A stretch of 58,166 nucleotides of DNA, the filler included, from Catajapyx aquilonaris (Eukaryota), in NCBI GenBank assembly GCA_000934665.2. It is 2 parts of 2 records of this genome, joined end to end, with 100 filler letters (N's around TTAATTAATTAA, not from the genome) between each part and the next. Parts side by side here need not be neighbours in the genome. Positions count along the whole stretch, not along the records: positions 1 to 29,165 come from JYFJ02004845.1; 1 more part is not named here. One strand, 5' to 3'. A program made the translations under genes and the position numbers. Below, one piece after another: positions 4,708 to 36,280 of the stretch (position 1 is the stretch's first letter; the number at the start of each line of letters is the position of its first letter). The notes under the pieces were generated by a model that had not been told where the DNA came from, searched no databases, and saw only the letters and a list, made by a program, of their open reading frames with translations.

Positions 4708-5365
4708 TATAGTCTCAACAAAGCTCAACAACAAATGGTCGCTTGTAGGCCATTCACACAACCGCAATCTTTTCCTCCCAAATGCGCTTTAAATAATTCA
4801 ACGCGTTATAATAAGAATAAAAAAGTTATCTCCTCTGGTACGGGATACCTCACACGACATAGCTTTTAAAAATCTCTCTTTGCATGGCGGTGGCTTGTGG
4901 CTTCTGGTTTATTTTTCAGAATATGACCAGGCGGGCAATCCTAGTTCAAGTGATAGAAAATATATTTGCATTATTCGTTGTTATTAAATTTCCACTTTAC
5001 TGCATAGACCGACCACAAATTGAGCGCAGTTGTTGTTTGCTATAAAATATTCATTGCGGTCGGAGTTACAGAAAATTATTGATTGCTTGAATAAGCGGAG
5101 TTCACTTCCGTGATGGTTAATGAGATATCAGGATTTAAATTGCAGTGTCATAAATGATTTAAAACTGGTGCTCGTGGCTCATCGATCAGCTTGAGGCAGC
5201 CCATTATCGGATTGAGAGTGCCAGAAGCGGGGGTGATGTGTATGGAAATGTGAGGCATATTGCGCAGAACTACTGTAAGTGGGTCTAATAACTGTGGATA
5301 ACAAGAACATTAGCTATTAATTGCATGGGCGGAAGTGAGGCCTCTGTTCAGTTTAGGTTGCCAAC

Positions 5366-7501
5366 ATGTGCAGGTTACAAGTGCTGGCCTTGTGCTCCAT
5401 CGCCTTGTTTGGTGACTGTCTCTTCGTCGAAGGAAATGTGTCCGTCATCCATCAGAAGGCAAAAGGAGATCAGGAAAGCATGATGGTGTCCAGACTGGTC
5501 ATGGACACTCTGGACAGGGAGGACCTGAGGGAATGCGGTCTGGTCCTGTCCACTGACTCATCCCAACTGGTGGGGACAGAGGTGTGGGGTCTGTTGAAGA
5601 GGCAGTCGGACAAGTACCTCCCGTCCTTCTCCCTCCGGACGACCTCCTTCCCACACTCCTTCACAGACTACCCCTGGCTCAAGGGTCAAGCTGACCTCCT
5701 GGACTTCACCACCGTCCCTCCTGACCTCCTCGTCACCTCCGCCTGGTCAGCCTCTGGCTGCACCCTCCACCTCCTCCTCCCCTCCTCCCCGGCCTCCCTC
5801 CCACAACTGGTCATGTCCACCGCCTTCAAGGTCAAGGTCAGTCCACTCGACGACCGCTTCATCGTCCACTTCCTCTCAGACCATCCCGAGGAGAGAGAGG
5901 TCCATCGGGTGCTGACCTCGCCCCCTGCCAGTGCCCTCAGGCTGAAGGTGTCCACCAGGATGGAAGGAAGTGCCATGAGGGTGGAGACTGCCTGCTTCTT
6001 CTGCGGGGAAGGAGGTCAACAGGCGGTCATCAATCTCGGGCATTTTCGCCAAGAGAATTCAGAAGCACACAACTTCTTCAGGAACCAGGATAAGTACGGG
6101 ATGAACAAAAGAGAGGCGGTGTTTGGTATGTACATGTTTCCTGCTGATATGGCTTACATCCGAAAGAAAAGGGAGGAGGAAGGGGAGGTCTACCTCACTT
6201 ATTACGAGCGATTATATCTTATTGGTGAGAAGTCACTCAATTGCACATCCCACATACATGTGAGCGAGCCTAAAAATGGCGAGTTCGAACGTCTCCTGGA
6301 CAACGGGACGTGGCTGGGACTCACTGGGGATTTGATCTCGGGCAGAATAGATCGGGCGTCCTTCATGATAATTACAGAGGACACCTACAGGCATGTCCTC
6401 CATCCTCACCCACACGTGTATGGACACGGGACATTCATTACGAGGAAACCCAGGGGAGTGGTCAGTTGGAGAGTCATTCACAGGCCTTACGTCTTCACCT
6501 TCTGGGTGTCCATGGCAGCCACCCTTCTTCTTGTCCCATTCGCAATGAGCAGAATCGACAGATACCATCTCTCCGGAAGAGGGTCAGAGGTCGTCCCCCT
6601 CTCTCCTCTGGGATCCCTCCACGTCCTGGCCAGACACCTGATAGACCAGCCCGTTCCCTTCCCCACATCCCGCCGCTTTCTCTTCCTGGCCTCCTCTTTC
6701 CTCTTCTTCGCAATGGTTGTGGTCACTGGCTACAAGGCCAAGATGGTCTCCTTCCTCACCTTCCCTCCCAGAGAGTTTGTCCCTCGGGACTGCTTCGAAC
6801 TGGTGGATTCGGGCTGGGCCATCAAAGCAGACTTTCTCAACTTCCTCCTCCTGCAAAAGTACCTCTCCTTTGTCGACGATCCACTGAACACAGCTATAGT
6901 AGAGAAGATGACCATGGCCGATAGTGTCCAGAGTTGCCTGGAGAGGACCCAAGAAGAGCAGCTGGTCTGTGCTGGAGTCAACATCCTCATGAACCAGCAC
7001 ATGTACCTCTTCAGAGACATGTCTGGACAGCCAACCATCCTGTACTCGGAAGAGAAGAAGTACTCTAGTTACGGAGTGATAGGCATCCCTCGGGGGCAGA
7101 CCCTGCACTTTTACATGACAGCCAAGTACATTAGGATGACCAGCGAGAGTGATTTATTCTCCAAATTCCACGCAGACTACATGCACCTGATGTTCCTCCG
7201 CTCACTGAAGGAGATCAGAGCCAGGGAGAGGGACAGCCCCCCAAAGGCGGAGGAAGTGCTGACCAGGGCCAAGCTCTCGGCCATATTCTACATCTGGTTG
7301 ACGGGACTTGCCTTGTCATTCCTTCACTTCATTCCCGAAATGGTGTGGAAAGACTACTGTGGTCAGTGGAACTGTGCCGGGGATGTCGACAGCAATAGTG
7401 ATTTCATGAAAGCGTCGTGGATCCGGAGAGCTTTTGACCGCCTCATGACAGTAATCAAGGCCAAGCAAGGCGTGCTCGAGACAGGAAGAGAGATCAAGTA
7501 G
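5366..7501 (+). CDS. Divergent ionotropic receptor (variant iGluR chemoreceptor), intronless, 711 aa
   Basis: Single long ORF with a signal peptide, S1 lobe (NGTWLGLTGDLISGRID...FITRKP), TM1 after RPY, M3-like YKAKMVSFLTFP, S2 lobe and a C-terminal TM (AIFYIWLTGLALSFLHF). The canonical S1 ligand-binding Arg context (ITxER) is not conserved, as is typical of divergent IRs. Confidence 0.9.
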   Translation: MCRLQVLALCSIALFGDCLFVEGNVSVIHQKAKGDQESMMVSRLVMDTLDREDLRECGLVLSTDSSQLVGTEVWGLLKRQSDKYLPSFSLRTTSFPHSFTDYPWLKGQADLLDFTTVPPDLLVTSAWSASGCTLHLLLPSSPASLPQLVMSTAFKVKVSPLDDRFIVHFLSDHPEEREVHRVLTSPPASALRLKVSTRMEGSAMRVETACFFCGEGGQQAVINLGHFRQENSEAHNFFRNQDKYGMNKREAVFGMYMFPADMAYIRKKREEEGEVYLTYYERLYLIGEKSLNCTSHIHVSEPKNGEFERLLDNGTWLGLTGDLISGRIDRASFMIITEDTYRHVLHPHPHVYGHGTFITRKPRGVVSWRVIHRPYVFTFWVSMAATLLLVPFAMSRIDRYHLSGRGSEVVPLSPLGSLHVLARHLIDQPVPFPTSRRFLFLASSFLFFAMVVVTGYKAKMVSFLTFPPREFVPRDCFELVDSGWAIKADFLNFLLLQKYLSFVDDPLNTAIVEKMTMADSVQSCLERTQEEQLVCAGVNILMNQHMYLFRDMSGQPTILYSEEKKYSSYGVIGIPRGQTLHFYMTAKYIRMTSESDLFSKFHADYMHLMFLRSLKEIRARERDSPPKAEEVLTRAKLSAIFYIWLTGLALSFLHFIPEMVWKDYCGQWNCAGDVDSNSDFMKASWIRRAFDRLMTVIKAKQGVLETGREIK

Positions 7502-7993
7502 GAAACAGAACTCACATAAGTAAGGGGATAAAAGTTGATGGGTTTGGACAATGGAAGGAAACGAGAGAATCAGGCCAAAGACAATGTTGAGAAAATTAAT
7601 CGACATTATTTGTCAATACTGTTATCCACCTTCCCAGTTCGTCTGACTATATCCTTTGTGGCTTTCCCACCTCTGCTTTTCTCGCCCCCTTGAGTTTAGC
7701 ATCGAGAGGAATGTAAACAGTCCCAGGTCACCAGTGACAAGCTGGGCGTGAAGCGTGTAATTTCCAGAACATATTATTGTCAGGTTAAAAACACAAAATA
7801 TTAATATAATGACCCACAAAATAAATTGACAATATAAAGTGTACCAATATTGACTTTTACTTATCCTGGGGAGAATCCCCTCCTGACTGTCTATAGTGTA
7901 GCCTAGCTCTAAAGAAACAGCGAACCCCATTGGAAGGCACTTAACCCTCAACTATACTCAGGTGGCGCCTGAGAGGCCCCAACCACTATTTAA

Positions 7994-9143
7994 GGTGGAA
8001 ATGAAGCGACTTGCTAATCAAATGAGAGTCTAGAATTTGAATGTTAATAAGAAGGGCTAAAATCAGGGAAACATACGCAACCGATGCAGCAGGAAATGCT
8101 GTTCAATCCTATGCATTCCATTCGAATCTGCGTTTTAAACTCGATTTAATATGGGCCCATTACCGGCTGCAAGTTTTTGTGCGCAGGCGCAATTGTCACG
8201 GCTGCCAACTTAAACATGGTATTTGGAGGTGTGCTTAATATTTTTTTATTTTTGATGGAAATCAATTTTATTCGGTCGTAATTACCAGGTCCCAATTTGT
8301 CGAGGAATTTTTAAATATTTAGTTCCGAAAGGGGAGCCTGTAGCTCTTCATTTGTGTCGGATTTGGAACACGTTCAGTTGGTATGCGTGTGACAGATAGA
8401 AGTGGCAACGCAGCAAATTTCCACTAATAATTCGATTCGCAAAACCTGCTTATAAATAGGATTTACTTTAACGCTGCGTGTAATTAAAGTGATAATAAAG
8501 TCTAATTGCACGTGTAATTTTGTAAAGTATTACTAATTAAATGGACATTACGTCCGTGATTGCGTCACGTGACATGGCGCGCTGCATTTGTCACGCAATT
8601 TTTGTTCCAAACCCCGGGGTCATCGACCTTTGCCCATTGCGTATTGAAGATTCGAACGAAGACGGGGGTTTTCTTCCAGCACACTGACAGAGTGCTGCAA
8701 TAATATTATCATGGCACACCATCTCACTTGCACTCACATTATTTCGCGGTCGTATGCAACCGTATCTCGCTACCGTAAACAACGCTGTGTTGCCACTTCC
8801 TCACTCGCATGAGGCAATGTGACGTCACTGGATCATTTTCGGATCGTTTTTCAGCAATACAAATTGAAAGATCACGGTGAGGTAGGTTTCTCTTTTTGCG
8901 GTTACGATCAGTATGTAATTCCCGACATGTTCCACATTTAATTTTAAAATTCTCATTTACTTATGATTTTTTTGTGGACTATTGAAAATTCTGCCATAAG
9001 GGCCCATGTTCAATCGCGAACTTCTGAGCCCTCCAGTTCGCTAATTTGCACGGTGACGTGTATTTTTCTTTGCACCATTGATATGAGGACACGAAAAATA
9101 TGTTTTTTTTTCATAAAACTCTCATTAAGTGACTCTAGCTTCA
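7994..9143 (+). mobile_element. Non-autonomous TTAA-targeting DNA transposon (Kolobok-like), right terminus clipped
   Basis: Starts TTAA|GGTGGAAATGAAGC. It is a near-identical inverted copy of 21525-22679 but lacks the last ~8 bp of the other TIR. Confidence 0.8.
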
Positions 9144-10589
9144 CGTGATGTAACTACTATGTAAATCTCCACACACACAAAAATTTGTAATCGGCTGAAG
9201 GTAGAGAGGGTAGAGAATCTGGTGGCAATAAAGAGCACCTTCAGCACTGCAAGAGCACAGCTCCCCATTCTTCAGCCCAAGCTGACTCAAGTGGTGACGA
9301 GGAGGACTCTAGTTGTGACAGTGACACCCAGGAGTGAGAGAGTGACTTTTGTAATGTGGCAGGCTGGCAGTAACAGTGGCATTATTTTGATGTTAAAAAG
9401 CACATTAATATGAGCATAACTGGATAAGAATATATATGTGTCAAGCTGTCAGCGTATCGCTAATAAAAATATGTAGATTGAAATTGCGCCTAAGGATTTA
9501 TATGTGTCGGCGTATCGCCCTGGTATCGCTAATAGAAATATGCAGATTTAAAGTATGCATAAGGTTTTTTTTAAAAAAATGTGCGTAGCAACTGACCCGC
9601 TAAAAATGCAAGATAAAAAACAAAGCCAAATTCCCAATTGTTCCGAGACCTCGAGAAGAAACCGAGAAAAACGCGTCCCCCCCCCCCCCCCCCCCNNNNN
9701 NGGTTTTCCCCCACGGCCCCACCTTCCCATCTCTATAGACAAGCCCGACAAGGCCCACCTAGATTATTTTATTATTGTCGTCTGGGAGTTGAACAAGCAC
9801 ATTATTTCTTTTACCTGACCTCTGCGCCGGAAGCTCGTACTTGTTCCAAAATATAGTAAATAGGTCTATGGGCTTAGACTCGACACAATAGTCACCTTGT
9901 TCGTAACGTAACCCTAACGGACTGATAATTTTGCTTTTATTATTTAACCCTAAGACCAGGCGTAAACGGGGGGAATAATAATTAGGGAGTCACTTGTTGA
10001 CCGCAGGTCAACCTGGGGCCATGCCTGAAACGCATACAGCGCGCGGGCTTGAGTCACAGCCAGGCAGGTCAATTATACAAGTAGCCTACATGTATGCATG
10101 CAGAATATTTGGCGGGTTCCAAGCTACCATACTGCAAAGGTCAACCGTTTGCGCATGTCGGGGGGTATAGCCATGTAGACTCATTGGCAGCAGAAGGATT
10201 ACTTCCTCCTGGTCAGGGGGGCACAAAAGTGAAAGTTCCTTCCCCCTCCTTGCCAGAGGGGGGGTCCGGGGGATAGTCTTTCTTGCCCACGCTGCGTTGT
10301 AGGGGGGCAGAAACCAGCTCTCTTGGTTGGACCCGCGTCGCCTGCCTCATTCCGGCATACAGCTCACCACCTATATAGTGCACGTGTGGACTAGGGTCAG
10401 ACCACAACAACATTGGAAGGTGAGCACATTACTCTGTGGGGCTTGGTCTGCTGGTTGGGTCGGGTGGGGAATGAAGAGAGAATAAGGGAATCAGACTGGA
10501 GACTGTGGCCTCATGCACTCTTCTTATTCCAGACAAAGGGGTGCAGAGTTGAGAGGAGAGAGAGAGACCCATCCCCCTTATCCGCAGCC

Positions 10590-13500
10590 ATGGAGATGAT
10601 GAGATTGGGGAGGTTCCGCTGTCCCCAGTGCCCCAACAACGTCTTCAAGAGGAAGATTGACCTGTTGGCGCACAGCTTCACTCACTCCCAGTGGGACAGG
10701 GTCAAGGTGGAGCCAGAGGAGGAGGAGCCAGTGGAGGTCACCATCAGGTGCACCAAGGAGGATGAGGAGAAGGTCAGGGAGTGTTGGAAAGGAAGGCTGG
10801 AGGTCAAAGGGGAGACAGGGGAGGAGGAGGGCAACAGCAGCCATCAGGAAAGTGACCCCGGGTCAGCAGCAGAGGCGGAGGGCAGGGACAGGCAGGAGGC
10901 TGGTGACACTGATCCAGACGGGGAGGAGGGGGCAGGAGGAGGAAGCGATGGAGGCGGAGGAAGGCAAATCCAGGTGAGATAACCATACATGTTGTGCATG
11001 TTCCCACGATGGGGTCGGAAATTGTGGGACAAAAAAGATCTAAAAAATAAAATATTCAGACAGTCTACAGTTGTAACGCAGGGTCTGCTCATAAATATTG
11101 ACTAATTTTTAGTGCAGCAGGTTGTTCCTAATAGTAGGCCAGTCGGACTAAAAAGTGACAATTTGTTTCATCATCCCTGTTTATTGATATGTGCTAATCA
11201 AGTTTGAAATTCTACATTCTTCGTCTTTCAAATGTCCACTATAAGTGCTAATAATCCCCGGAATTTAAATTTCAATGGCAATGGGAAATGAAACTTGGTT
11301 TTATGAGTCATGTATTATACATTGAAACTGTTTTTTGCCACAGAAGTTGCTTGCACAGAGATGAGACAATGTAACTATGGCCAATGCTAAAGGTGACCAG
11401 ATTTCCAAGCCCCAAATTCGGGGTAAGTTACCTAAAAATGTCGAGTGAGGAGCAGGTGATGATAAAAGACCATTGCAAGCTTGCTTTTATTTGATTTAAA
11501 CATGAAGATAATAGTAGGCCTACTTAGTTTTTGCCGCCATGAGAATGATGTTGTGGTGGTTTGGATCTTCCCTGGTCTCCCCCAGATGCATCATCCACAT
11601 CGCTTGCTAACCACCCACCTCGGCTTGTAATCATATTTACCCTAACTTACTATACTTACTGCACTGACGCTGCCATTACCGTGACAAACGGGCGTCCCGA
11701 ATGACCCTTGACAAAAACCGGGAGAACGGGTGAAATTCCGGAAACGTCTGTTCGCCTTATTACCGAAACCGGCAATTAGATTGAATAGGGGCATGCGTCC
11801 CTCCATCCAAATGGAGGCTGGCGTTGAGTTGCGCAGAAGGCCGGTAGCCGCTAATTGGCATTTAGGAACATTATTTATTTATTTTAAAGCTATCGAATCA
11901 TCTTTTGCACTAATTTAGCGTGCAATCTCTTGAGGAGGTTTGGGGGCAACTATGTATGCCAAAAATTTGCCGGGAAAGGTCGTATTTTTTTTTTCAGCGG
12001 CCGCAAAAAGATGATTTCGTTTAAGTTAATCTGGTTAATCCGGTTTATTTACGCAAGATTTTGTAGTCCAAAACTCGCGATTTTTTACGCGAGAGAAAAT
12101 TTAAAAAGCCACACAGAAACCACGTTACATAGTGGGAAAACGCTATAGTTTCGCCAGCTGAATTTTTTAAAGCCACCGTATCTGCATATGATACGCCCGT
12201 CTTATTAGAAACCTGTCAGGAAAAATCAAGTCTCACTTTTGAGTAGAACGTTTTTAGGAACAACTTTTGCTGCTCATTTCGAAATTTCTCAATTTGCAAC
12301 AGTATGTTGTAGTGTTGCAGTCGTGTTGCATGAATGACCTATTCTCAGACCTCTATAGCTAGAGTGGATTCTTGTTCCTCCCAGTGACTAATAATTCCAT
12401 CCAGCAACAGATGTGCTTGAATGTGATTGGACTGTTCTAGGCAGAGGCTTTATAATTACGGAAGGAGCATGTCACCCAAGTAACCAGTGTATGTTGAGGG
12501 TGTGTCTAATTTTTTTTGTAGTACATGTGGATTGCCAGGACCATTTCCACCTGTCTTGCTTAGAGTGACATTTCGGGACTCACAACGGAAGTGTAAGTGT
12601 TGTCCTTGGAGTTTCTGAATGAAACTTGGTAGGGATGAAAAACGCACCCAAAGTGACCTGTTCAAAATGACCCAGTGACCCCTTTTTGGGGGCTATCAAT
12701 GCACCGAATTTCAAAAAAATGGATGAGTTTTCGGCATTTAAGAGTTGACCTCTGCCCCCCCCCCCCCCAAACAGGGGTCATTTTGAGCAGGTCACCTTAG
12801 GTGCGTTTTTCATCTCTTGGGGTGGCCTACCAATGTACCGAATTTCAAGAAAATCGGTGAGGCCTTGAAAGTGTCCCTTGTGAGTTCGAGAGGTCATAAC
12901 CTTTGACATTGTGGGCATTCGCCTAAATTGTTTGCATTTCGGGGAGATGAAGTGGCGTCGCGGTAACGCGTGGGCCCACGGATATGAAGGTCCCGGGTTC
13001 AATCCCCACCCGGGGTTCCCTCTTTATCCGTGCAGAGTTGGGCCATCTCTGGCTTCATTTCGGGTGGCAATTTTCGACAGACTAAGCCACCCGGGGGAGT
13101 TCACAAAATGACCGTCCGTCCGTTAGAGACATTGCACATGCACTTTGCACATCCCCTCCCACACCCTTGGAGTACACTAATAAGATTCTTCTTAACTCGC
13201 TCCAACAAATCCCGATGGTGGTAGTTTCACCCCCCCCCCCCCCCCCCCCAAGNATAGCTCCCCCCATGGGGTAATGTAAAAAAGTTTGTGTTTTCTTTAA
13301 TACGAGGGGGGTTCCGAAAGTCTTTACACTTTTTTTTTTGGCACAATGAATTTTTATTTTACGAATTTGACACCTTCATCTTCTCCACATAATCTCCCTT
13401 CAAAGCGATACACTTTTCCCAACGTTTTGGCATCTTCCTGATACCTTCTGCGAACCAACTTTTTGGAACACTGCGCACCCACTGCCGGACAGCTGCGTCC

Positions 13501-15447
13501 AGGGATTCCGCATCACTGAAGTGGTGGCCTCGCAATGGCTACTTCATAGCCCCGAACAAGTGGAAGTCACTGGGGACGAGGTCTGGGGAGTAAGGAGGGT
13601 GTACTTGCTAGTGTGGGGACGGGCATTGTCATGCTGCAGCAAAACCCCCAAAGCCCACTTTCCTGGCCTCTTTTTCTGGATGGCACGTCGTAGACGCTTG
13701 AGTGTCTCCACGTACGCTGGTCCATTAACAATCCTTGTCCGCAACTACCTGAACCTCCGTGTCTTCCAAATCGCACACCTACGGCGCTATTGCTCGGATC
13801 AGTCCCCGGACACTTATTGTCTTATACTACGTTCTGGTGTTATCACCTGCCGAGGCATTTCGCAGCGGGTGCTCACCTGAGAGCGCCATGAGACATTTAG
13901 GGGGCCACAGTAAGTGGCGACCCCACCGGACTAGACTGAACTTTATAGGTACTAAAGGGGAGGGCTACATCGGGCTACACGCTGGCCCAACATGGCCGCC
14001 GGCGGCCAAGTTGGGCCCCCCAATGTAGCCCTCCCCTTTCGTACCTATAAAGTTCAGTCTAGTCCGGTAGGGTCGCCACTACTGTGGCCCCCTAAATGTC
14101 TCATGGCGCTCTCAGGTGAGCACCCGCTGCAAAACGCCCCGGCAGGGGGTGGGTGGGAGTGACCAGACCTTACTTATATGACCGTGGCTCGGATCGAAAA
14201 GTAACGCCACCTATCGGTTCACAATACAACTAGAGACCAGTCCCTGAAATTGGTGGCAATACGAACATCATACCTCCTGTGAAAAAAATTAAGTGTAAAG
14301 ACTTTCGGAACCCCCTCGTAACTTACCTGCCTATATTATTGTGCCAAGTTTCATTCAGAAACTCCACGGACAACACTTACACTTCCCTTGTCAGATGGGT
14401 CACTGTGACTCCTATTGACACCTCATCATGAAAATAATTAAGTCAATCCTGGAAGCCATCTGGACATTGACAACACCTTGTCCTGAATAGAGGAAAAATC
14501 ATGCCAAACAGGTTCTGGCGGATTGTGGGGAGGAGGCCAGGGGGGTTGGGGTCAAGGGATGGGGGCTTTACGCCAAGAATTTAACGAGCTCATACCCATT
14601 TCAGGCAAACGATGATCAAGAAAATGTGAAGGATGGAAACCAGCAAGACATGCAGAGAAGGAAACACTTGGAGGGGAAGGTAATTTGTCAGATTTGTAAG
14701 AAGAAATTCACTTCCCGGAGTCATTTGAGGATTCACATGAGAATCCATTCTGGGGAGAAGCCATTCAGGTGCAAGGTTTGCAAGAGAAAGTTTAGTCAGG
14801 CAGGGAGTTTGAATACACACATGAGAACCCACACAGGGGAGAAGCCATACAGTTGCGAGGTTTGTGAGAGAAAGTTTAGTGAGTCAGGAAGTTTGAATAA
14901 TCACATGAGAACCCACACCGGGGAGAAGCCATTCAGTTGCAAGGTTTGCAAGAGAAAGTTTAGCCGGTCAGGGGATTTGAATTTGCACATGAGGACCCAC
15001 ACAGGGGAGAAGCCATTCAGTTGCATAATTTGTAAGAGAAAGTTTCGTCACTCAGCAGGTTTGAATTCGCACATGAGGACCCACACAGGGGAGAAGCCAT
15101 TCAGTCGTATAATTTGTAAGAGAAAGTTTAGTCACTCAGGTGATTTGAATAGCCACATGAGGACCCACACAGGGGAGAAGCCACTCAGTTGCATTATTTG
15201 CAAGAGAAAGTTTAGTGAGTCAGGAACTTTGAATAGACACATGAGGACCCACACAGGGGAGAAGCCATTCAGTTGCATAATTTGCAAGAGAAAGTTTAGT
15301 CACTCAGGAAGTTTGAATGTCCACGTGAGAACCCACACAGGGGAGAAGCCATTCAGCTGTCAGATTTGCAAGAAAAGGTTTAGTCAGTCAGGAGGTTTGA
15401 ATATTCATATGAGAACCCACAAGGTCATAAGCCATTCAGTTGCCTGA
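10590..15447 (+). CDS. Tandem C2H2 zinc-finger protein (copy 1), 2 coding exons, about 408 aa
   Basis: Exon 10590-10973 has an ATG, a lone C2H2-like CPQC...H...H, VKVE and an acidic linker, ending at donor CAG|GTGAGA (phase 0). It joins exon 14605-15447 (acceptor tttcag, phase 0), which has 9 fingers with TGEKP linkers; finger 6 has C->R (FSRIIC). Confidence 0.8.
11020..11610 (+). repeat. Zinc-finger intron segment, locally triplicated
   Basis: Direct copies at about 19455-20030 (full) and about 18907-19260 (partial), sharing for example taggccagtcggactaaaaagtgaca...ggtgaccagatttccaagccccaaa. Confidence 0.85.
12941..13225 (+). mobile_element. tRNA-derived SINE, family A (tRNA-Arg(ACG)-like head)
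   Basis: GGGGAG start, A box TGGCGTCGCGG and B box GGTTCAATCC. Body shared with copies at 24480-24877, 25332, 34956 and 51760. Confidence 0.85.
13303..14318 (-). mobile_element. Deleted mariner element with intact TIRs
   Basis: TA|CGAGGGGG(G)TTCCGAAAGTCTTTACACTT TIRs at both ends with TA TSD. Minus-strand remnant YVETLKRLRRAIQKKRPGK...LLQHDNARPH is the mariner catalytic motif. Confidence 0.9.
13846..14146. repeat. About 300-bp near-perfect palindrome (foldback MITE) inside the mariner
   Basis: The left arm cctgccg...ggtgctcacctgagagcgccatgagacatttagggggccacag...ctttataggtac is mirrored on the right; centre ggccgccggcggcc. Confidence 0.85.
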
Positions 15448-16430
15448 TTTGCATGCTGATGCTTGCAGACTCCGGGAAAAGGCATGTGAAAACACACAAA
15501 AGAAAAGTAATTTTGGCATGTTACCTGGATCAACCATGTCATGTGCAATGTTTAGTTATTATGAACTGGTCGGGGCACCCTTGATGAGGATTTAGATTGG
15601 GAATGTTCAGGGAGAGACCATTAGTGTCAGGGATGCGAAAGACCCCCCCTGAAACCGATTTTTTTCCTATCCTACTATAGGTTTTGCATAAACAAAACTA
15701 GTGCAGATACAAGCTAATAAAGCTAAGCTAATGTGATTTTTAATCTTCAATTTTGCAAATAGAAAAGGAATATATTGTATGTTCACTTTCTTATGGACTT
15801 TTCGCAATCTTCCAAGTGTGTGGGGAGGCAGGCGGGGCGGGGGTTGGGCGGGGAGGGACCGCTGCTGTAGTTCTGGCTGNGTAGTTCTCGCTGTCCGAAA
15901 CTGTTGCCAGAATGACACTTAGAGATGAAAGGACGGAGGAAGTGAAAACTTGGGGACAACGTCCGACTCAACAGATGACAGGGCTGGTTTTCTCGGGTTT
16001 TCCCTCCCCCTGCGGCCATCTCCCCTCCCCGTCTCACCTGTCCTCCCCACCCACTTAGACTTGCAAGGCGGAATCTAAAAAGGGAACGCGACAATATTGA
16101 ATGGAAATGAGACATCTGGCATCATTTCACATCCCTTTGGCGTTGACTGATCGCAACATGTGTACCATTCATCGCGTACTTACATGTGAACACGTCATCT
16201 CCAATTTTTTCCTTGAAATGGTGCTTTTCTTAAGCGGATTCGGTAAGAGGCACGTAGAATGTAAAACCTTGCATATAAATAAGTGGAAGAGTTACTTCGG
16301 GCACTAGCAGAAAAATGTTTCTAATTCCCCAAAATTGATGGTCTTTTGCGTCATATTTATGTGCAGAAAGTTTTAGCTGGGGTGTTCACTACTGGACCCA
16401 AAAAACGTTGACGTTCCAAATCTCCTTCAG

Positions 16431-16920
16431 TCTCGATGTCTCTCTCGATGTCTCCTCGATGTCTCTCTCGATGTCTCCTTCAGTCTCGATGTCTCCGGTC
16501 GGCTGTTGTGGCGAGGACAAGGGGTTATTCACTAAATGTAGTCCTGGTACACCTTCGTATCTGGTCCGGGGGTAGTCCAAGGGTAGTCCGAGGTAGTCCG
16601 AGAAGTAGTCCGGGGGTAGTCCCAGTAGTGCGTGCACGCAAAAAATGTCAGTGCATGACCCTTCGGTCCCAGAAGGAGACACTCGAGACTGGGAAGGTAA
16701 AAAAAAAAGTACTCGGCATCCTGGCAATGAATTACTGAACATGGCTCCACAAAGCCCTTCACCCGAGAGATTATTCAGTTACATTTTTTTTGCGTACACG
16801 GACTACCCCGGACTACCCTTGGACTATCCCCGGACTACCTACGAAGATGTACAGTACACGGACTACCCTGAGTGAATAACCTCTCTCCCCCGCCACCACA
16901 GCCGGCCGGAGACATCGAGA
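16431..16920. mobile_element. Foldback-type MITE with tandem subrepeats in the arms
   Basis: Inverted arms tctcgatgtctccgg...gtagtcc(n)...cgcaaaaaatgt and acattttttttgcg...ggactac(n)...ccggagacatcgaga. Tandem tctcgatgtc units at 16431-16495. Confidence 0.7.
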
Positions 16921-19900
16921 TCAAGGCTGTCGATACTCGTACAGTCATCATTTTGGGTGTCCATAATAACTGGAACATTTGCACACTTGCGCGCATAACA
17001 ATTATTTAACTCAAAGTTAACCTGTATAACGTGGCACGAATGCGCACCTGATGATAGAGTAAGTCTCCACGATTCGAACGATATTTTTACTTGATGATTT
17101 CTTAAGCTATTCCCCTGGGAAGAGTGTCCGACGTGAATATTTTTTCCTTACCCTGTCGACCACTGGGACCTTACTTATAGTCGGTGTGGCTAAGGGAGCA
17201 CTCTGCCACATACTGTACCTTTAAATGGGATCTCCTCATACTGCAGGAGCTTCTGAAGGGCCAATTTAATACAATGGCAGGTACCTCCAACCTCGAAAGT
17301 GACTGTTTAAAATTGAGGGTAAATCGAAGGCCATATAAACAAAATAACTGAATGTAATTCAGCTCACGGCTCTGTATAACTCATTTGGACTATAGCTCTT
17401 CAATATGCCACTGGTTGAGAGAATATTTCCCCATATATTATGAATTAATATATTGTATTGTAGACAAAATAATTTGGGCCTTTTTAGTCTGTGTAGAGAG
17501 CAGTTTGTAATGTGTCGAGAAAGTAGTTGAATAATCATTCGTTGGCTGCTCACTCATTTCGTTATGATATTGATCAAAAATATGGCTGTTGATGTGTCCA
17601 CCTTGCAATATCCTTAATCCTAAATGTCCGATTACTTCTATATGACAGCTATGACAGTTGGAAATCATATTTCCGAAATCCAGGGGAACAAGATAGCTTT
17701 CGCCTTTTGGAATAAAGAATTCTCAGCTGTATTTTAAAATATTATGTGGTTATGGAATTATATACTGTATGTTCTTTGGGAGTGAACCTGCTGTGTACGT
17801 ACTGTGGTTGCTAAACCTGTAACATGCTTGATTACTAGAAAAATAAAAAAAACCTGTCGTGATGATTGCAGAATTCTTATATTTTTGTCTGTCGGCAGTG
17901 ATCCAACAAAGGGACCCAAAATTTCGGTTCTCATTGCATCATTAGAACTGGTTCACTCGGTTGATCAGATGGTGACCCAATAATATGACCCAATAATTTA
18001 GGCACAAAATTGTGACTTAATTATTGGGTCACTGCGAACCTCGTCATAGCTGCATCAGCTGAAGCCCCAGTTTTCTTCAAATTTTCATCTAAAATCAACC
18101 GTTTCATTTACATCTTTAATTATTATGTCAGATAACGTTAATATCGCTACTTCAAAGGGTTTTCTATGGGGTGTCGTTTCAAAATTAATATATTTAACAC
18201 GATTAAACCTGCCGCAAAGTAAGCTCTGAAATAAATTTTGGCTCAATATCTATGCTGAACAATTTATGAGAAAAAAGTCCCGATAGTGTCGTTGAGTAAG
18301 GAAAGCTGTTCTTAAGGGTTTGTAAGGTATATTGTAACATATATCAACTTATTAAAATTATTAAAAAATGAAAACCAATTTCCTAGCCAATTAAGATGAA
18401 ATGTTTTTTCTACAAGTTTTTGTACAAGTTGAAACAATGCGAACCCTTGGCGACGACCTAAACAAACTCGCTTATGCATGGGCAGCATATGGGGATTCGA
18501 CATGTCTACGCTTCTGCGGCCGTACGGCCGCAAAAATGGTGCGATCGACACAACAATTGCACCAAAAAGTAATAGATGATCTGGCGCAGGGCACCTTTTT
18601 CGTCTTTTTTCCATTTTCGGCCTAGGCATAACCTTTTCATCAAGTTGAAGTGAGAGGAAAATGGCGTCTCCGAAGAGTCCATTTGATTAACATGGCGGAA
18701 GGAATCGCGTGAAAATCGGTCACATTTCTGCACCCGTATGTCCACAATTTTACTGCAATCATGTCGAGTATGGTGCCATTGTAAAGGCGAAACCTTTGCG
18801 CAAGGCACCTTATTCGTGATTTTTCAGATTAAGGGCGCGTTTCGCGACAAAAAAATAAAGTTCCCTAAAAAATGCGCCTACCGTATTTTTGCTAATGCGC
18901 CGCCTTAATATTGACTCGTTTTTAGTGGAGGTTTTCTTAATTGTAGGCCTATCGGACTAAAAAGTGACAATAATTGCTTTTTCATCCCTGTTTATTGAGT
19001 TGTGCTAATCAAGTTTGATATTCTACATTCTTCTTGTTTCAAGTGTCCACTGTAAGTGCTAATAATCCCCGCAATTTAAATTTCAATGGCAATGGCAAGT
19101 GAAACTTGGTTTCATGAGTCGTGTATTATACACTGAAACTGTTTGTTTTTTGAAATACTGTAGTAGCCTATAGTTGCTTGCATAGAGATTACACAATGCA
19201 ACAATGGCCAATGCTAAAGGTGACCAGATTGCCAAGCCCCAAATTTGGGACACATACCTCAAAAACGTATTATGACAATACGTATTGCATTGGGAATCCT
19301 AATGATTGATTGGGAATTGAATGGCGCGAAAGCAGCAACGACTGCACTGACTATAAGGCTAACGATGTTACATGGTACATTATACACATGCTAATGGACT
19401 TTTATACTCCAACCTTTAGAAAGTTACACATATTATAAGGATAAGGACCCTGTGTATTGTGGGACAAAAGAGATCTAACATTCCGACAGTTGTAACGCAG
19501 GGTCTGCTCATGAATATTGACTAATTTTTAGTGCAGCAGGTTGTTCCTAATAGTAGGCCAGTCGGACTAAAAAGTGACAATTTGTTTCATCATCCCTGTT
19601 TATTGATATGTGCTAATCAAGTATGAAATTCTACATTCTTCTTCTTTCAAGTGTCCACAATAAGTACTAATAATCCCTGGAATTTTAATTTCAATGGCAA
19701 TGGCAAATGAAACTTGGTTTTATTAGTCATGTATTATACACTGAATCTGTTTTTTGCCAGTACGTAGCTGCGTGCAGAGATTCAGCAAAGTAACAATGGC
19801 AAATACTAAGGTGACCAGATTTCCAAGCCCCAAAATTCGGGATACGTACCTCAAAAATGCCGAGTGAACAGGAGGAGATGATGAAAGACCATTGCTAGCT

Positions 19901-20812
19901 TGCTTTTATTTTATTTAAATATGAAGATAATAGTACTTAGTTTTTGCCGCCATGAGAATGATGTTATGGTGGTTTGGATGGATCTTCCCTGCTGGTCTCC
20001 CCAGATACATAATCCAAGTCGCTTGCTAACCAGTCATGTTGCATAGAGGGACGCCGGAACCATCGCCCCCACTATTTTTTGAGTGGGGGGGGGGGAGTGG
20101 TTACCATTTGCGCCCGCAGTTTGAAATGGTCGCATACATTAATTAACCCCCCACTTTGTTTATCTTCTAAAACTAAAAATTTGAAGAAGAAAAATCGACT
20201 CAACCGGAATTTGTGAATGCACCATTAGCGACGGGCCCTTACTAGGAGAGAGGGGGCTAGCCGAGGGTTTGAAACGGGACTCTTTATTTTAGCTGAAGCT
20301 ATACCGCCGGGCATCGGCTACTTCTGTAGGCAGGGATGCCGCGAAGCTTTGATATAGGAAGAAAGGCACGCTATAAAATCATCAAGAATCCCGTTAAAAG
20401 GGGCCCAACAGTGTTTCTGGAAAAATAAGGGAAATACTTGAAAGAGTCCCTCTCTCTCAGTTTCGGTGTGAACTCGGGGCCTCTGGTATCGTCGGTGTTT
20501 TTCCGCATTCCGTATGGGACATTTTGCATCTGGTCGTCCCCTTGCTCGTACTCCCCCCCTCCCACTCCCGCCAGCCATGAATTAGTAGCATACCGGTATG
20601 TGTTGTGATGAGGTGTGCATAAGTGCCCAAGAATGAAGAGACAGCGAAATACGCTCTTCACATACTTTGGAAAGAAACAGGATGGCGATTCAGTCGTCGC
20701 CCGTAAAATTCCAAAGGCGATTGAAGGTCCGCATTGCATTGTTTTACAATGTTTCATCGCTTGCCACATTAGTACATTTAATCGACTTGAACTTTCGGAT
20801 AATATGGAAGTG

Positions 20813-20815
<3 letters not shown>

Positions 20816-20890
<75 letters not shown>
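20816..20890. repeat. (GA)n microsatellite
   Basis: Pure GA dinucleotide run. Confidence 0.95.
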
Positions 20891-20892
<2 letters not shown>

Positions 20893-21031
20893 GAGGGTTG
20901 CGTACACATTCATCCGCTTTACGTGTATAATGTACGATCATATTTAAATATTTACTGAACCGCCCTCGTATATTTCATTGAACCTAGCTACCCCCCCCCC
21001 CTCCGAAAATTGTTTACTTAATTTAGGCTCC

Positions 21032-21149
21032 TAGTCTGGTGACCCCGGGTAAGCTTTCCCGGGGGCAATCACCATGGCAGCATATGTAAAAGGATAGCAG
21101 TAAACAACAAGTTACCCAAGGGGGCAAGCTACCCGGGGTCACCAGACTA
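21032..21149. mobile_element. Small MITE
   Basis: TIR tagtctggtgaccccgggt / acccggggtcaccagacta. Confidence 0.65.
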
Positions 21150-21524
21150 TATACCTAGATGGCCATTTCAACAATATGCAGTAGCTGATTACCTGCCAAC
21201 CTTGAGGGATAAAGAATATTTCGTATGCAGATGTATTGTTACTGAATTCTTTAATGGCCTGTTTCCACCGTCACTATTTTAAAGGACAATACAAAACCAA
21301 AATTCGATGCAAATCCACACTGAAAAAGAGATCAAATACGAGTAATGAAGAACAATTATAGTAGATTATTCCTAGAATATGTTCTAGTTTTACAAATTGT
21401 GCTCGTCAAAAATGGGAATCCAACTGAATCCGAGAGAAGGAGAGAACCTAACCTCGAAAGGCTGTGAAATTGTGTAATTATCATAATTATTTAGCGATAA
21501 TTCAAGCAGATTATTGACGGTTAA

Positions 21525-22679
21525 GGTGGAAATGAAGCTAGAGTCACTTAATGAGAATTTTATGAAAAAACATATGTCACGCAGTTTTGTCCTCATATCA
21601 ATGGTGCAAAGAAAAATACACGTCACCGTGCAAATTAGCGAACTGGAGGGCTCAGAAGTTCGCGATTTAACATGGGCCCTTATGGAAGAATTTTCAATAG
21701 TCCACAAAAAATCATAAGTAAATGAGAATTTTAAAATTAAATGTGGAACATGTCGGGAATTACATACTGATCGCAACCGCAAAAAGAAAACCCTACCTCA
21801 CCGTGCTCTTTCAATTTGTATTGCGGAAAAACGATCCGAAAATGATCCAGTGACGTCACATTGCCTCGTGCGAGGAAGGAAGTGGCAACACAGCGTTGTT
21901 TACGGTAGCGAGATACGGTTGCATACGACCGCGAAATAATGTGAGTGCAAGTGAGATGGTGTGCCATGATAATATTATTGCGGCACTCTGTCAGTGTATG
22001 TGCTGGAAGAACCCCCGTCTTCGTTCGAATCTTCAATACGCAATGGGCAAAGGTCGATGACCCCGGGGTTTGGAACAAAAATTGCGTGACAAATGAAGCG
22101 CGCCATGTCACGTGACGCAATCACTGACGTAATGTCCATTTAATTAGTAATACTTTACAAAATTACATTTGTAATTAGACTTTATTATCACTTAATTACA
22201 CGCAGCGGTATAGTAAGTCCTATTTATTAGCGGGTTTTGCGAATCGAATAGTGGAAATTTGCTGCATTGCCACTTCTATCTGTCACACGCATACCAACTG
22301 AACGTGTTCCAAATCCGGCCCAAATGAAGAGCTACAGGCTCTCCCTTTCGGAAGTAAACTTTTAAAAATGCCTCGACAAATTGGGACCTGGTAATTACGA
22401 CCGAATAAAATTGATTTCCATCCAAAATAAAACATTAAGCACACCTCCAAATATCATGTTTAAGTTGGCAGTCGTGAAAATTGCGCCGGCGCACAAAAAC
22501 ATCCAGCCGGTAATAGGCCCATATTAAATCGAGATTAAAACGCAGATTCGAATGGAATGCATAGGATTGAACAGCATTTCCTGCTGCATCGGTTGCGTAT
22601 GTTTCCCTGATTTTAGCCCTTATTATTAACATTCCAATTCTAGACTCTCATTTGATTAGCAAGTCGCTTCATTTCCACC
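21525..22679 (-). mobile_element. Complete non-autonomous Kolobok-like DNA transposon, 1155 bp
   Basis: TTAA TSD on both sides (21521-21524 and 22680-22683) and 14-bp TIR GGTGGAAATGAAGC. Purine-purine termini with TTAA fit Kolobok rather than piggyBac. Confidence 0.85.
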
Positions 22680-22844
22680 TTAAGGGCGCACGATCACGAC
22701 GATTTTTCCCACTCGCGGAGTAATGAATATGGGAAAACTAATGCCAAGCAGGTTCTGCCGGGTTGTGGGGAGGAGGCCAGGGGAGTTGGGGTCAAGGGAT
22801 GGGGGCTTTACGCCAAAAATTTAACGAGATCATTCCCTTTTCAG

Positions 22845-23924
22845 GCAAACGATGCTCAAGAAAATGTGAAGAAGGGAAACCAGCAAGACATGCAGAGAAG
22901 GAAACACTTGGAGGGGAAGGTTTGTCAGATTTGCAAGAAGAAATTCACTTCCGGGAGTCATTTGAGGATTCACATGAGAATCCATGCAGGGGATTGGTTC
23001 AGCCAATTCAGTTGCAAGGTTTGCAAAAAAAAGTTTAATCAGTCAGGAATTTTGAATACACACATGAAGACGCACACAGGGGAGAAGCCATTCAGTTGCA
23101 TAATTTGCAAGAGAAAGTTTAGTGAGTCACGAAATTTGAATAATCATCTGAGAACCCACACAGGAGAGAAGCCATTCAGTTGCGAGGTTTGCAAGAGAAA
23201 GTTTAGTGAGCCAGGAAATTTGAATAGACATATGAGGATCCACACAGGGGAAAAGCCATTCAGTTGCGAGGTTTGTGAAAGAAAGTTTAGCCGATCAGAA
23301 CATTTGAATGACCACATGAATACCCACACAGGGGAGAAGCAATTCAGTTGCGAGGTTTGCAAGAGAAAGTTTAGTGAGTCAGGAAGTTTGAATGTCCACA
23401 TGAGGACCCACACAGGTGAAAATCTATTCAGTTGCTCAATCTGCAAGAAAATGTTAAGTCGGTCAGGAGATTTGGATAGACATATGAGGACCCACACAGG
23501 GGAGAAGCCATTCAGTTGCTCAATTTGCAAGAAAAGGTTTAGTGAGTCAGGAAGTTTGAATAAGCACATGAGAACCCACACAGGGGAGAAGCCATTCAGT
23601 TGCAAGGTTTGTGACAGAAAGTTTACTCTGTCAGGAAGTTTGAATACACACATGAAGACCCACACAGAAGAGAAGCCATACAGTTGCGAGGTTTGCAAGA
23701 GGAAGTTTAGTGAGCCAGGAAATTTGAATAGACACATGAGGACCCACACAGGGAAGAAGCCATTCAGCTGCAAGTTATGTGAGAGAAAGTTTAGCCAGGC
23801 AGGAACTTTGAATATCCACATGAGGACCCACACAGGGGAGAAGCCATTCAGTTGCTCAATTTGCAAGAGAAAGTTTAGTCACTCAGGAAGTTTGAATGCA
23901 CACATGAGGACCCACAGTGGGTAG
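22845..23924 (+). CDS. Tandem C2H2 zinc-finger array exon (copy 2), 12 fingers; no own 5' coding exon seen
   Basis: The acceptor tttcag|GCAAAC and about 100 bp of upstream intron are paralogous to those at 14605. The open frame has 12 intact C2H2 fingers and ends at a TAG within the linker SG*KP. Confidence 0.8.
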   Translation, partial: ANDAQENVKKGNQQDMQRRKHLEGKVCQICKKKFTSGSHLRIHMRIHAGDWFSQFSCKVCKKKFNQSGILNTHMKTHTGEKPFSCIICKRKFSESRNLNNHLRTHTGEKPFSCEVCKRKFSEPGNLNRHMRIHTGEKPFSCEVCERKFSRSEHLNDHMNTHTGEKQFSCEVCKRKFSESGSLNVHMRTHTGENLFSCSICKKMLSRSGDLDRHMRTHTGEKPFSCSICKKRFSESGSLNKHMRTHTGEKPFSCKVCDRKFTLSGSLNTHMKTHTEEKPYSCEVCKRKFSEPGNLNRHMRTHTGKKPFSCKLCERKFSQAGTLNIHMRTHTGEKPFSCSICKRKFSHSGSLNAHMRTHSG

Positions 23925-24063
23925 AAGCCATTCAGTTGCCTGATTTGCAAGATGATGTTTGCAGACTCCGAAAATTTGAAAAGGCGTGTGAAAACACACA
24001 CAAAAGAAAATTAATTTTGGTATGTTATCTTGATCAACCCTGTCCTGTGCAATGTTTATTAGT

Positions 24064-24479: not shown

Positions 24480-24558
<79 letters not shown>

Positions 24559-24877
24559 GTGGGGGTAGTGCTCACCCAGAAGGTGTTTTGCACGGACCTT
24601 TATTCTCAATTCGTACGTTTGGAGCCTCGAACGAAGCGCCCGGGCCCACGGGCAGGATGACAGAAGGGGATGTGCAAGGTGCAGTGCGACTGACGCGGTG
24701 GCCATTTTTAGTGAACTCCCCCGGGTGGTTTAGTCTGTAGGAAACACCACCCGAGACGAAGCCAGAGGTGACCCTGACCTCTGCGCGACATGAAGGGGGT
24801 GTCCCCGGGCTGGGATTGAACCCGGGACCTTAACATCCGTGAGCGCGCACGTTACCGCGGCGCCACTCCGTCTCCCC
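24480..24877 (-). mobile_element. SINE family A with (TTA)n tail
   Basis: Homologous to the 12941 copy. TSD tttattagtta (24055-24065 / 24878-24888) encloses both this SINE and the adjacent family-B SINE. Confidence 0.85.
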
Positions 24878-24888
24878 TTTATTAGTTA

Positions 24889-25874
24889 CTAGCTGGTTAC
24901 CCGGCGTTGCCCGGGTATGTTGGGGTGCGGGTAAAGGTAGGGGTACATTTATACAGTATATATTAGGAAGTGTGTTTGTTTGTAAAAATTTCCCGTCCAT
25001 ACACTCGAAACTCGATACGTCTTAAAATAGGCCTTATAAGTTACAATCACACCCCCACCTCGTTCTCTGTTTGCTCTGAATAACCTTAGAAATGTACGTA
25101 CAGATGCATGGTGGAAAATTTTGTTTTCAACACGGAGTAATATTTGCAAATTCTGTATTATTTAATTGTATTTACTTTTGTCTGGAAGTCTACTTTCAAA
25201 TCCCACAAAATCCCGGAATTACCATAAGATACGAAGTCACGTGAGGTGGCCAATTAGCGTAATTGGTGGATGCGCTGAATTTACGGCGATGGTTTAACTT
25301 GCTAGGTGTTGTTGCATAAGGGCCATTCGTAGGGGAGACGAAGTGGCGCTGCGGAAATGTGCCCACGGATGTTAAGGTCCCGGGTTCGATCCCAGCCCGG
25401 GGTTCCGCCCTTCATCTCGTGCAGAGTTGGGTCGTCTCTGGCTTCGTTTCGGGTGGAATCTCCGCAGACTAATCCACCCGGGGGAGTTCACAAAATGTAC
25501 CCTTTGAGAATTGCACTTGCACCTTAGTCACCCTGCCCGTGGGTCCAGGCCCTACGTCAAAAAGGTTTCATCAACACGAAATAAAGGTCCCTCCCTGCGG
25601 TACGATGCAGGGAGGAAAATAGCCATATTTTTAAAAAGGCATTTCCATGAGAATGCAAATTGATATTGTTATCGAGTAAGAAGTGAGAAGTGGAATATGC
25701 GTGTTGTGGGAGTTAGGTTCATTTTCGGAAGCTGAAACATGCGGAGTTAGATTCCTTGGAAAAAGTAACCCCCGATATGCTAATTTAAGGCGGTGTAGGG
25801 GCCTTCCCCTGGATTTCTATAAGGGACAAACATCCAAACTCACAAACTCACAAACAAACGAACTAAAATATAGA
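24889..25874 (-). mobile_element. Non-autonomous Helitron-like element containing a nested SINE A (25332 to about 25590, +)
   Basis: On the minus strand: 5' A|TC start with a (TGAG/TTTG) microsatellite, and a 3' hairpin CCCGGGCAACGCCGGG followed by CTAG|T. Same end architecture as 31404-31777. Absent from the paralogous 3' region at about 15555. Confidence 0.7.
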
Positions 25875-26559
25875 TTAAGATAATGAACATTACTGATCGG
25901 GGCACCCTTGATGCGGATTTAGATTGAGTATGTTGAGGGAAAGATCATTATTGTGAGGGACCTAACCTTGTTATTCTTATGAAAACCCTATATAAGAGTC
26001 TCACTTTTGCAAAAATGTGACGCTTATTTTAGGGATAACTTTGTTATACATAAAACATAAATAACTGCGCTACACTTATGAAATGCCTATATAAGCGTAA
26101 CAGTTTGAATAAGTTGTGACACTTATTTAAATAATAGCCTCGTTACGCCTGATATAGTCGGTAGAGTCATTGCTGCTTTCGCTCCATTAAATTCCGAATC
26201 AAAAAAATTGCATTAGAAATCCTAATGATTGATTGGGAATTGAATGGCGCAAAAGCAGCAACGACTGCACAGACCATAAGGCTAACAATGTTGTGGTACA
26301 TTATATACAGGGTTATGGACTTTTATACTCCAAACTTTGTCGAGTTACGCGTATTATAAGGAATAAAAAAATTGATTACCAACTTTTTATTTTACCTTTG
26401 ACTTCCATCCACTTTGACCATTTTTAATGCAACAGTGCGGAAAATAGTGACTTACATGATTTCTTATTTACCTGCTGTTCTTATTGGGAAGCACGGCAGT
26501 GCGTCCGCCAAGGCTCCTCCCGGCTCCCACTCTCCCTCCGCCCTCCTCCCTCCCACCAC

Positions 26560-27892: not shown

Positions 27893-28145
27893 GCCCTCAG
27901 GCTGAAGGTGTCCACCAGGACGGAAGGAAGAGGAGGGCTCTTGAGGGTGGAGACTGCCTGCTTCTTCTGCGGAGAAGGAGGTCAACCTGAGGTGGCAGCC
28001 ACCCTTCTCCTTTTCCAATTTGCAATGAGCAGAATCGACAGATGTCATCACTCCCGAAGAGGGTCAGAGGTCGCTCCCCTCTCTCCGATATCCTCTGGGA
28101 TCCCTTCACATCTTGACTAGACACACTGATAGAACAGCCCGATTC
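27893..28145 (+). pseudogene. Fragmentary pseudogene copy of the ionotropic receptor
   Basis: Matches IR nt about 5933-6020 fused to about 6513-6656 (ALRLKVSTR...RVETACFFCGEGGQ / AATLLL..FAMSRIDR), then frameshifts. The IR downstream flank (about 7790-7993) is also duplicated at about 28590-29068. Confidence 0.9.
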
Positions 28146-35343: not shown

Positions 35344-35409
35344 TTTTGTGCCCATATATCCTAATGTCAGCCTCCATCCTTGCACTCTAGTGATGCAGGC
35401 CCCACGAGA

Positions 35410-36280
35410 TATTCCAGAGGGGCTCCTTCTGGCAGTATCTCTTGACTCCGCTGCTCAACCCCAGGACTGCCGCAGAACAGGCCTACAACACTGCCCACAT
35501 ATCGACGAGGAACTGTGTTGAGAGAGCCTTCGGGGTGCTGAAGAGGCGCTTTCCAGTGCTCAAGTATGGTCTTCGCATTAAACTGAAGATAATTCCCCCT
35601 GTGGTTGTTGCTGCTGCAGTTCTGCACAACCTAGCATCCATTTTGGGGGAAGAGGAACGACCTGAAGACGTGGAGCTCACGGAATTCATTGATCAGTTGC
35701 GTCGACAAGGTGTCATGGTTGATTTTGAGGACCCCAATGTGACCCCACCCCCAAGCAATGTTCCCCAGGGTGGTACAAACGTGAGGGACGCAATCATTCG
35801 CCTGTTTGAATAAAACATCTAGTCCTAATGTCATTGGTTTTATTTCTGTGCAAAGACAGGTTCAACGCTCTGTCCAGTCAGCGATGCCAACTTGGCCTTA
35901 CGAATTGCTATTTGTAAGCGAAGTGATTCTGCTTGCAGGTCGTGCTCTCGCTCCATAGCGGCCATCTTGAGGTCATGTTCCTTTTGCCTGCACTCTGCCA
36001 TGACTTCATAGTATTTGGTCTTGGCCTGCGAGCAGCTCACAAGACCTTTCGTTGTGTCTGTCCACAGCTCTATTGCTGATGCTACAATCCGAGGCCGGTG
36101 GCGGTGTACTGGACCTACCTTCCATTTCTTGGTCACTGGCAAGGAGGCTGCTGTTGTTGCTGTGGCTGAAGTTGCTGCGGCTGTCACAGCTGCAGGTGCC
36201 TTCGAGGAGCTCTTGTTGGCAGGTGTCCCCAGCAGGGAGTTGGTCGCAAGGTTGGTCGTGTCCACAGCATTTACAGACTA
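35410..36280. mobile_element. PIF/Harbinger transposon remnant (3' ends of both genes, tail to tail)
   Basis: The + ORF ending at 35813 (YLLTPLLNPRTAAEQAYNTAHISTRNCVERAFGVLKRRF...AAAVLHN) is a HARBI1/DDE_Tnp_4 C-terminus. The convergent - ORF 35840-36265, with coiled coil KEHDLKMAAMEREHDLQ, fits the tail of the Myb/SANT partner. Confidence 0.85.

Follow-up and report, generated by a model that had tools for sequence, protein, structure and literature searches.

The FiNZ-ZNF genes of cyprinid fish are a lineage-specific family of about 700 copies with a 28-residue FiNZ domain, according to the part of the source drawn on here (Wells et al. 2023, PMC10547256). In the KRAB zinc-finger clusters and related genetic units of mouse, 517 of 518 units are reported to have KRAB sequence at most 30 kb upstream, a figure from which it cannot be read whether every array has a KRAB to itself (PMC5363842). 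The ZF271-like/APEZ genes of Hemiptera are in ongoing lineage-specific tandem expansion, with long C2H2 arrays in clusters (PMC6444547), and in Drosophila lola a constant BTB part is shared by 20 isoforms (10.1101/132027), each as given in parts of those sources. Here we describe a zinc-finger locus of Catajapyx aquilonaris (GCA_000934665.2, an assembly of 20,583 contigs), in which one first coding exon is followed by two zinc-finger-array exons, array 1 and array 2. The window is the whole stretch of DNA analysed, 58,166 nucleotides including filler; positions 1-29165 are a single contig, C2738, and no finger arrays were seen past the gap that follows it (29166 onward, off contig C2738). The original prediction took the two arrays for alternative last exons on one N-terminal module, as in lola or mod(mdg4). 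We favor, with modest confidence, the reading that array 2 is a recently stranded orphan exon.

The locus belongs to a family that resembles FiNZ-ZNF genes, as they are described in the cited part of that source, in placing an acidic, uncatalogued N-terminal module and the complete array on two successive exons, and in having many recent paralogues with diversified contact residues. It differs in that the module contains an atypical C2H2 finger and in its number of detected copies (about 70 vs about 700). Tandem layout, duplication, recombination and shifting finger arrays are shared with the mouse KRAB clusters as far as these are covered in the same part of PMC5363842. As in KRAB-ZFP genes, an effector exon is combined with a single array exon in tandem clusters, and contact residues diverge on a conserved finger framework; unlike in those genes, a KRAB domain was not found at E up to 1, and unlike in ZAD-ZNF genes, the first exon was not found to have an N-terminal zf-AD (four-cysteine) domain. 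The ZF271-like/APEZ genes show the same ongoing expansion of clustered long arrays, but are described in the cited part as arrays with no other domain, whereas the family here has a conserved N-terminal module.

With lola and mod(mdg4), as presented in parts of two sources (10.1101/132027; PMC13490949), the locus shares frame-compatible variable exons without a 5' exon of their own. If array 2 were a working alternative last exon, the likeness would extend to a constant N-terminal part with alternative 3' DNA-binding exons. Unlike those genes, the locus has no BTB domain that we found and 2 candidate exons rather than 20-30 or more, and its exons encode long tandem arrays in a layout that is young and not the family norm. 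In open-licence article text, we found no description of the family or of a non-BTB finger-array gene with a shared first exon. The family appears to work like a KRAB/FiNZ-type cluster, and it belongs to neither the lola nor the KRAB kind.

Gene 1 and the two finger arrays

The first coding exon of gene 1 (10533..10973, +) encodes an atypical C-x2-C-x13-H-x3-H finger and an acidic linker. Its coding part runs for 384 nt from the ATG at 10590 to the phase-0 donor at 10973 (CAG/GTGAG). The two acceptors end at 14604 and 22844, and the frame is kept from this donor with either, giving proteins of 408 and 487 amino acids; the proposed compatibility of the one phase-0 donor with acceptors 14605 and 22845 was thus borne out. 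The coding part of array 1 (14605..15447, +) has 9 units, 8 of them intact and the remaining one with a Cys to Arg change, and a frameshift lies ahead of the terminal finger. The same frameshifted tail is also present in contig C8076. The coding part of array 2 (22845..23924, +) has 359 codons and 12 intact fingers in which 48 of 48 zinc ligands are kept, with a stop at 23922-23924. Past the stop is a stranded terminal (13th) finger with a His to Arg change (23925..24010, +). The residues at positions -1/2/3/6 are equal between the arrays in finger 1 only (1 of 12), in agreement with the earlier statement that array 2 retains 12 intact fingers with helices unlike those of array 1. The first linker of array 2, near 22990, is altered in a way that sets this array apart from array 1. 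The spacer ahead of finger 1 of array 2 holds an in-frame ATG, and such an ATG is common across the family.

The exon called "exon 1" in the original prediction is probably the second exon of gene 1, preceded by a non-coding leader exon. A predicted promoter region and leader (10290..10419, +) coincide with a conserved upstream block that has GT at 10420 in 21 of 35 paralogues. A predicted intron of 113 nt in the 5' untranslated region (UTR; 10420..10532, +) ends in an AG (10531-10532) that 34 of 35 paralogues share, and it includes a conserved pyrimidine tract. The intron of gene 1 (10974..14604, +) consists of a family 5' part, transposon insertions and a family 3' part. Array 1 is followed by its 3' UTR and an "X type" flank (15448..18032, +), 86% alike and colinear with C8076, in which the AATAAA of position 15716 is held at the equivalent place. 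The 3' end of the array 2 intron (22724..22844, +), with its acceptor and a TTAAC that we take to resemble a branch point, is 90% alike to 14484-14604. The "Y type" 3' flank of array 2 (25880..26485, +), with an AATAAA at 26362, is displaced by about 1.8 kb by microsatellites and repeats.

Sequence between the arrays

Searches of the sequence between the arrays with tblastn, with DNA profiles built from 41 and from 46 paralogous exons and with a protein profile returned no first-exon remnant, and a profile of 35 paralogous upstream regions returned no promoter copy. Array 2 does lack a 5' family exon of its own, as predicted. Because it lacks one, donor 10973 is the sole family donor on contig C2738 able to reach it.

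The sequence between the arrays includes the debris of a third gene. Remnant "a" of the family intron (18907..19268, +; about +121 to +449) comes from a gene without a first exon and, here, without an array. A high-copy repeat adjoins it (18433..18910; 587 candidates, most of the scored ones at 85-87% and one at 91%), and the C8076 copy of this repeat is 97% alike and inserted at the identical junction. Next is a 164-nt piece of Y-type 3' flank, the end of gene a (19284..19447, +), which matches the flank in contig C7437 at 92% but that of array 2 itself (26207-26362) at only 87%, and which split from C7437 at a branch length of 0.031. Remnant "b", the intron of array 2, follows (19456..20036, +; +48 to +640) and is 86% alike to 11021-11613. 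The original prediction placed the start of the duplicated intron about 45 bp past the donor, and the alignment confirms this with a start at intron position +48. A block of interspersed repeats (20063..22683; multi-copy matches of 74-97%) stands in place of the middle of intron b, and its part at 21533-22683 is an inverted copy of 7990-9143 (94%). Seven AATAAA hexamers lie between array 1 and array 2.

The junction 19447/19456, where the flank of the third gene meets the start of the intron, was found side by side in no other contig among 25 matches. It was claimed earlier that exon 1 had not been duplicated with the intron; that the junction joins another gene's flank to the intron indicates a later deletion instead. 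The flank piece falls between two candidate polyadenylation hexamers (26186 and 26362 in the array 2 copy) and contains neither. It belongs to an inverted repeat that could account for the breakpoints. We considered that the intron copy could be a transposon and rejected this, as the long ones of its 30 genome matches are mostly directly behind paralogous first exons.

Contig C8076 repeats the window's order of frameshifted array tail, flank, repeat and intron copy without a first exon, and its flank differs from that of the window by 223 mismatches over 3166 alignment columns. Its intron copy is sister to remnant a (support 100/98; branches 0.044 and 0.031) and continues beyond the point where the window copy stops. 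Since the two are sisters and both lack the front end, the third gene would have lost its front before the split and its array afterwards, in the window. A sister relation of intron copies a and b was rejected (p-AU, approximately unbiased test, 0.015), so copy b did not arise by recent duplication of a. Nor is there a close source gene for array 2 (terminal branches 0.044-0.079). The trees of the array tail, acceptor region and Y flank had no starred branch and were used for branch lengths alone.

The family in the genome

A genome-wide search showed a family with a first exon and an array exon: 69 matches to the first-exon pattern and 66 to the array-head pattern, with 0 in reversed controls, the two patterns differing in tolerance and their recall being uncalibrated. 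The original prediction did not include this family, nor intron remnant a, the flank piece at 19284-19447, the stop that strands the 13th finger or the probable leader exon. Our family sample covers 777,904 bases in 58 contigs or contig parts, the window contig among them, which were picked for matching the window and are biased to close relatives. An own first exon precedes the array in 34 of 37 placeable arrays, a tally of this sample, with longer marker-bearing contigs lying outside it; in another 16 arrays, the sequence ended before the position of the upstream exon. One exon per array in nearly all placeable cases, together with the 69 to 66 markers, is not the lola-like cassette design that had been proposed. 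The three arrays without a first exon are array 2, C4732:4354 and C3469:2259. A further candidate, C2944:10468, was dropped, as it belongs to another zinc-finger gene, one that has an acidic front of its own (C2944:10300-11500, -) and lies directly behind a broken family member. Surplus first exons without an array numbered 9, several of them partial or broken; 9 of 18 "exon before exon" matches had been dropped as split or internally repeated. In C2045, degenerate first exons at 12601-13659, 24511-25280 and 36083-36985 have their 3' end, with the donor, tandemly repeated 2-3 times.

The donor is in phase 0 in 32 of 36 family first exons in which a donor was found. With phase 0 nearly universal in the family, any exon should be compatible with any array, and such a fit is uninformative on splicing from 10973 to 22845. 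An intact array was present behind 34 of 49 scorable array heads.

The original prediction also suggested a fast-evolving system like that of KRAB or ZAD zinc-finger genes. Fast change was supported: the proportion of nonsynonymous differences (pN) was 0.55 at contact positions (-1/2/3/6), 0.02 at ligand and core positions and 0.06 in linkers, compared to an overall synonymous proportion (pS) of 0.41. These are descriptive values from 4000 random internal-finger pairs from different arrays, uncorrected and non-independent. KRAB and zf-AD domains themselves were not found in the first coding exon at E up to 1. Synonymous states were saturated for an estimate of the ratio of nonsynonymous to synonymous rates (dN/dS) from rare variants, with only 2 synonymous events over all arrays.

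The orphan array in C3469 has an open frame with one ligand lost, and its private changes (8 nonsynonymous per 272 sites, 3 synonymous per 64) are not separable from neutral. The 14 kb ahead of the first array of C3469 contain no family first exon, and each of the two tandem arrays of this contig has an inverted, broken array-head copy in its 3' flank (688-799 and 5720-5831). In C4883:12776-14098 (-), 7 consecutive fingers have identical protein sequence, which would mean that the array expanded internally very recently or that the assembly is at fault.

The N-terminal module

Codons 2-40 of the first exon had a pN/pS of 0.31 (38 of 41 paralogue rows), indicating purifying selection. At least two V/I/L-K-x-E motifs, which we take to be the SUMO consensus, were present in 30 of 32 open first exons. 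The first coding exon had nothing above cut-off in Pfam, with sub-threshold C2H2-type and unrelated matches only, and KRAB, BTB and zf-AD were absent at E up to 1; the locus is thus without a BTB domain in this exon, as originally stated. No relative of the exon was found among longer proteins, and a search against 1.84 billion cluster representatives returned 2 weak finger matches only. An Atlas search returned generic C2H2 and unnamed clusters. The head of array 2 matched generic finger proteins, with at most 58% identity among the best 120 of 284 matches. The 40-codon atypical finger could be an interaction module, and by analogy the finger-plus-acidic module probably recruits partners.

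Origin of array 2

If array 2 is a recently stranded orphan, the window would contain the edge of a birth-and-death cluster in which each gene has a leader, an exon for the N-terminal module and a zinc-finger-array exon. Gene 1 would be complete, and at least two further copies, a and b, would once have stood behind it. In copy a, the front end would have been lost where a transposon adjoins it, and the array later. In copy b, a deletion would have removed the promoter, leader and first coding exon and fused the 3' flank of copy a to intron position +48, leaving array 2 as the remainder. From the form of the junction, it is most likely that array 2 lost its first exon by deletion rather than never having one. 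We infer that the deletion came after the split from C7437, at about 0.03 substitutions per site or less, and that array 2 would be intact because the loss was recent and selection acted until then. Gene 1 would normally splice to array 1, yielding the 408-residue protein and ending at the AATAAA at 15716, and any splicing onward to 22845 would be leakage rather than a switch kept by selection, with array 2 presumably having no present function. The deletion of copy a's exon-less array at this same locus supports the orphan reading. So do the family's norm of one first exon per array, its debris of both kinds (3 arrays lacking an exon, 9 surplus first exons lacking an array) and the fact that intact arrays are frequent in it (34 of 49). 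Non-canonical linkers trended to be more frequent in array 2 (5 of 11) than in 13 close arrays (24 of 103), although the difference was not significant (p 0.11).

Several results weigh against this reading. In neutral simulations, where the ranges reflect the indel rate and gene conversion between fingers is outside the model, array 2 stayed open with its 48 ligands with probabilities of 0.06-0.21, 0.004-0.05 and <0.01 at 0.01, 0.02 and 0.03 substitutions per site, respectively. On the orphan reading, retention this low confines the loss to the latest stretch of the time available. At the middle indel rate, neutral survival had a mean of about 0.18 over 0-0.03, and its comparison to the 34 of 49 intact family arrays gave a likelihood ratio near 4 for continued selection. 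For an array 2 that never had an exon of its own, the probability of neutral survival would not exceed about 0.0005. Array 2 also has an intact acceptor and branch region. C7437 may be an exon-less array behind C8076, the two contigs holding non-overlapping parts of the family intron; it is fully open, with a neutral survival of 0.07-0.25 at 0.012 and at most 0.03 at 0.03. The orphan array C4732:4354 is clean with an open frame. Lastly, intron b groups weakly with the gene 1 intron (66/74), as a partial duplication of gene 1 predicts, and a clade of copy a, C8076 and copy b also passes (p-AU 0.21).

A tentative alternative is that array 2 is a working alternative last exon. Transcripts of gene 1 would leave out array 1, read past its polyadenylation signals and splice 10973 to 22845, giving the 487-residue protein with the shared N-terminal module and 12 different fingers, and selection would keep array 2; the locus would be an incipient counterpart of lola with two choices, formed by deletion in a tandem cluster. 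Read-through transcripts of neighbouring human ZNF genes offer a precedent. The frame-compatible donor and intact acceptor fit this alternative, as do the likelihood ratio and the low neutral survival beyond 0.01-0.02 substitutions per site, but the transcript would have to pass the seven AATAAA and bypass a near-identical acceptor 8 kb upstream. The exon-less layout behind an array-1-type gene is present in two copies, the window and C8076, and C8076 and C7437 lie in non-overlapping intron parts and split from the window at similar depth; the adjacency of C8076 and C7437, however, is unproven. Two further orphan arrays have open frames, yet orphans are just 3 of 37 arrays, surplus first exons are commoner, and the C3469 orphan has lost a ligand and carries private changes inseparable from neutral. 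A broader version, which we consider rather unlikely, is that deletions of the front ends of downstream paralogues repeatedly turn tandem genes into one gene with alternative array endings, with the window, C8076 with C7437, C4732 and C3469 as candidates. This would be a lola-like switch at birth, on a non-BTB, uncatalogued finger-plus-acidic module, arising by loss and not by exon duplication.

It is quite improbable that array 2 is expressed from another start, either a transposon promoter in 20063-22683 or the leader ending at 10419 spliced directly, to yield a finger-only protein from the spacer ATG. Such an ATG is frequent in the family, the 2.6 kb ahead of the array 2 acceptor consists entirely of repeats and a leader exon is predicted, but there is no family promoter copy between the arrays and no specific start is indicated. 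Even less probable is an assembly error in which the true first exon of array 2 collapsed or was lost at 19268-19456. The assembly is fragmented and the junctions 19268/19284 and 19447/19456 have no second witness, but these junctions join non-homologous sequence, and C8076 offers independent confirmation of the order between array 1 and intron copy a. The original prediction had named an assembly artefact of haplotypes as a possible refutation; this is unlikely, as both arrays are on one contig, their flanks are different, and at about 84% alike they are too divergent for tandem-collapsed alleles.

Neighbouring genes

An intronless, ionotropic-receptor-like open reading frame (ORF) of 714 codons (5357..7498, +) precedes gene 1 and has a weak Lig_chan match (E 0.001, below cut-off). 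An internally deleted remnant of it (27893..28141, +; 88% and 84% to two parts of 5357-7498) marks the start of the next tandem unit, and a receptor-like copy (94%) is present behind the C7437 array (C7437:1-756). The receptor-like gene duplicates in one tandem unit with the zinc-finger genes. From the receptor gene behind the Y flank in C7437 and the receptor copies in the window, the stretch lost ahead of array 2 probably held a receptor gene together with the first exons of gene b.

Directly before the cluster is a CFAP96-like exon (3746-4126, -; PF15239, E 1e-13). The ORFs at 581-1525 and 2546-2971 resemble host-gene exons, and the two pieces scanned gave no Pfam match. A piece of DDE_Tnp_4 transposase at 35394-35810 (E 9e-11) lies tail to tail with an ORF at 35843-36277, a layout that we take to be that of Harbinger-type elements.

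Implications

The window marks a further independent family of the KRAB/FiNZ-like kind, with an N-terminal module that had no catalogued relative in the searches made. Through this family, one can ask how partners are brought to rapidly evolving finger arrays in animals that lack KRAB. Should the 10973/22845 junction prove both real and selected, it would exemplify a simple route from a tandem cluster to a lola-like gene with multiple endings; otherwise, array 2 would be ordinary cluster turnover.

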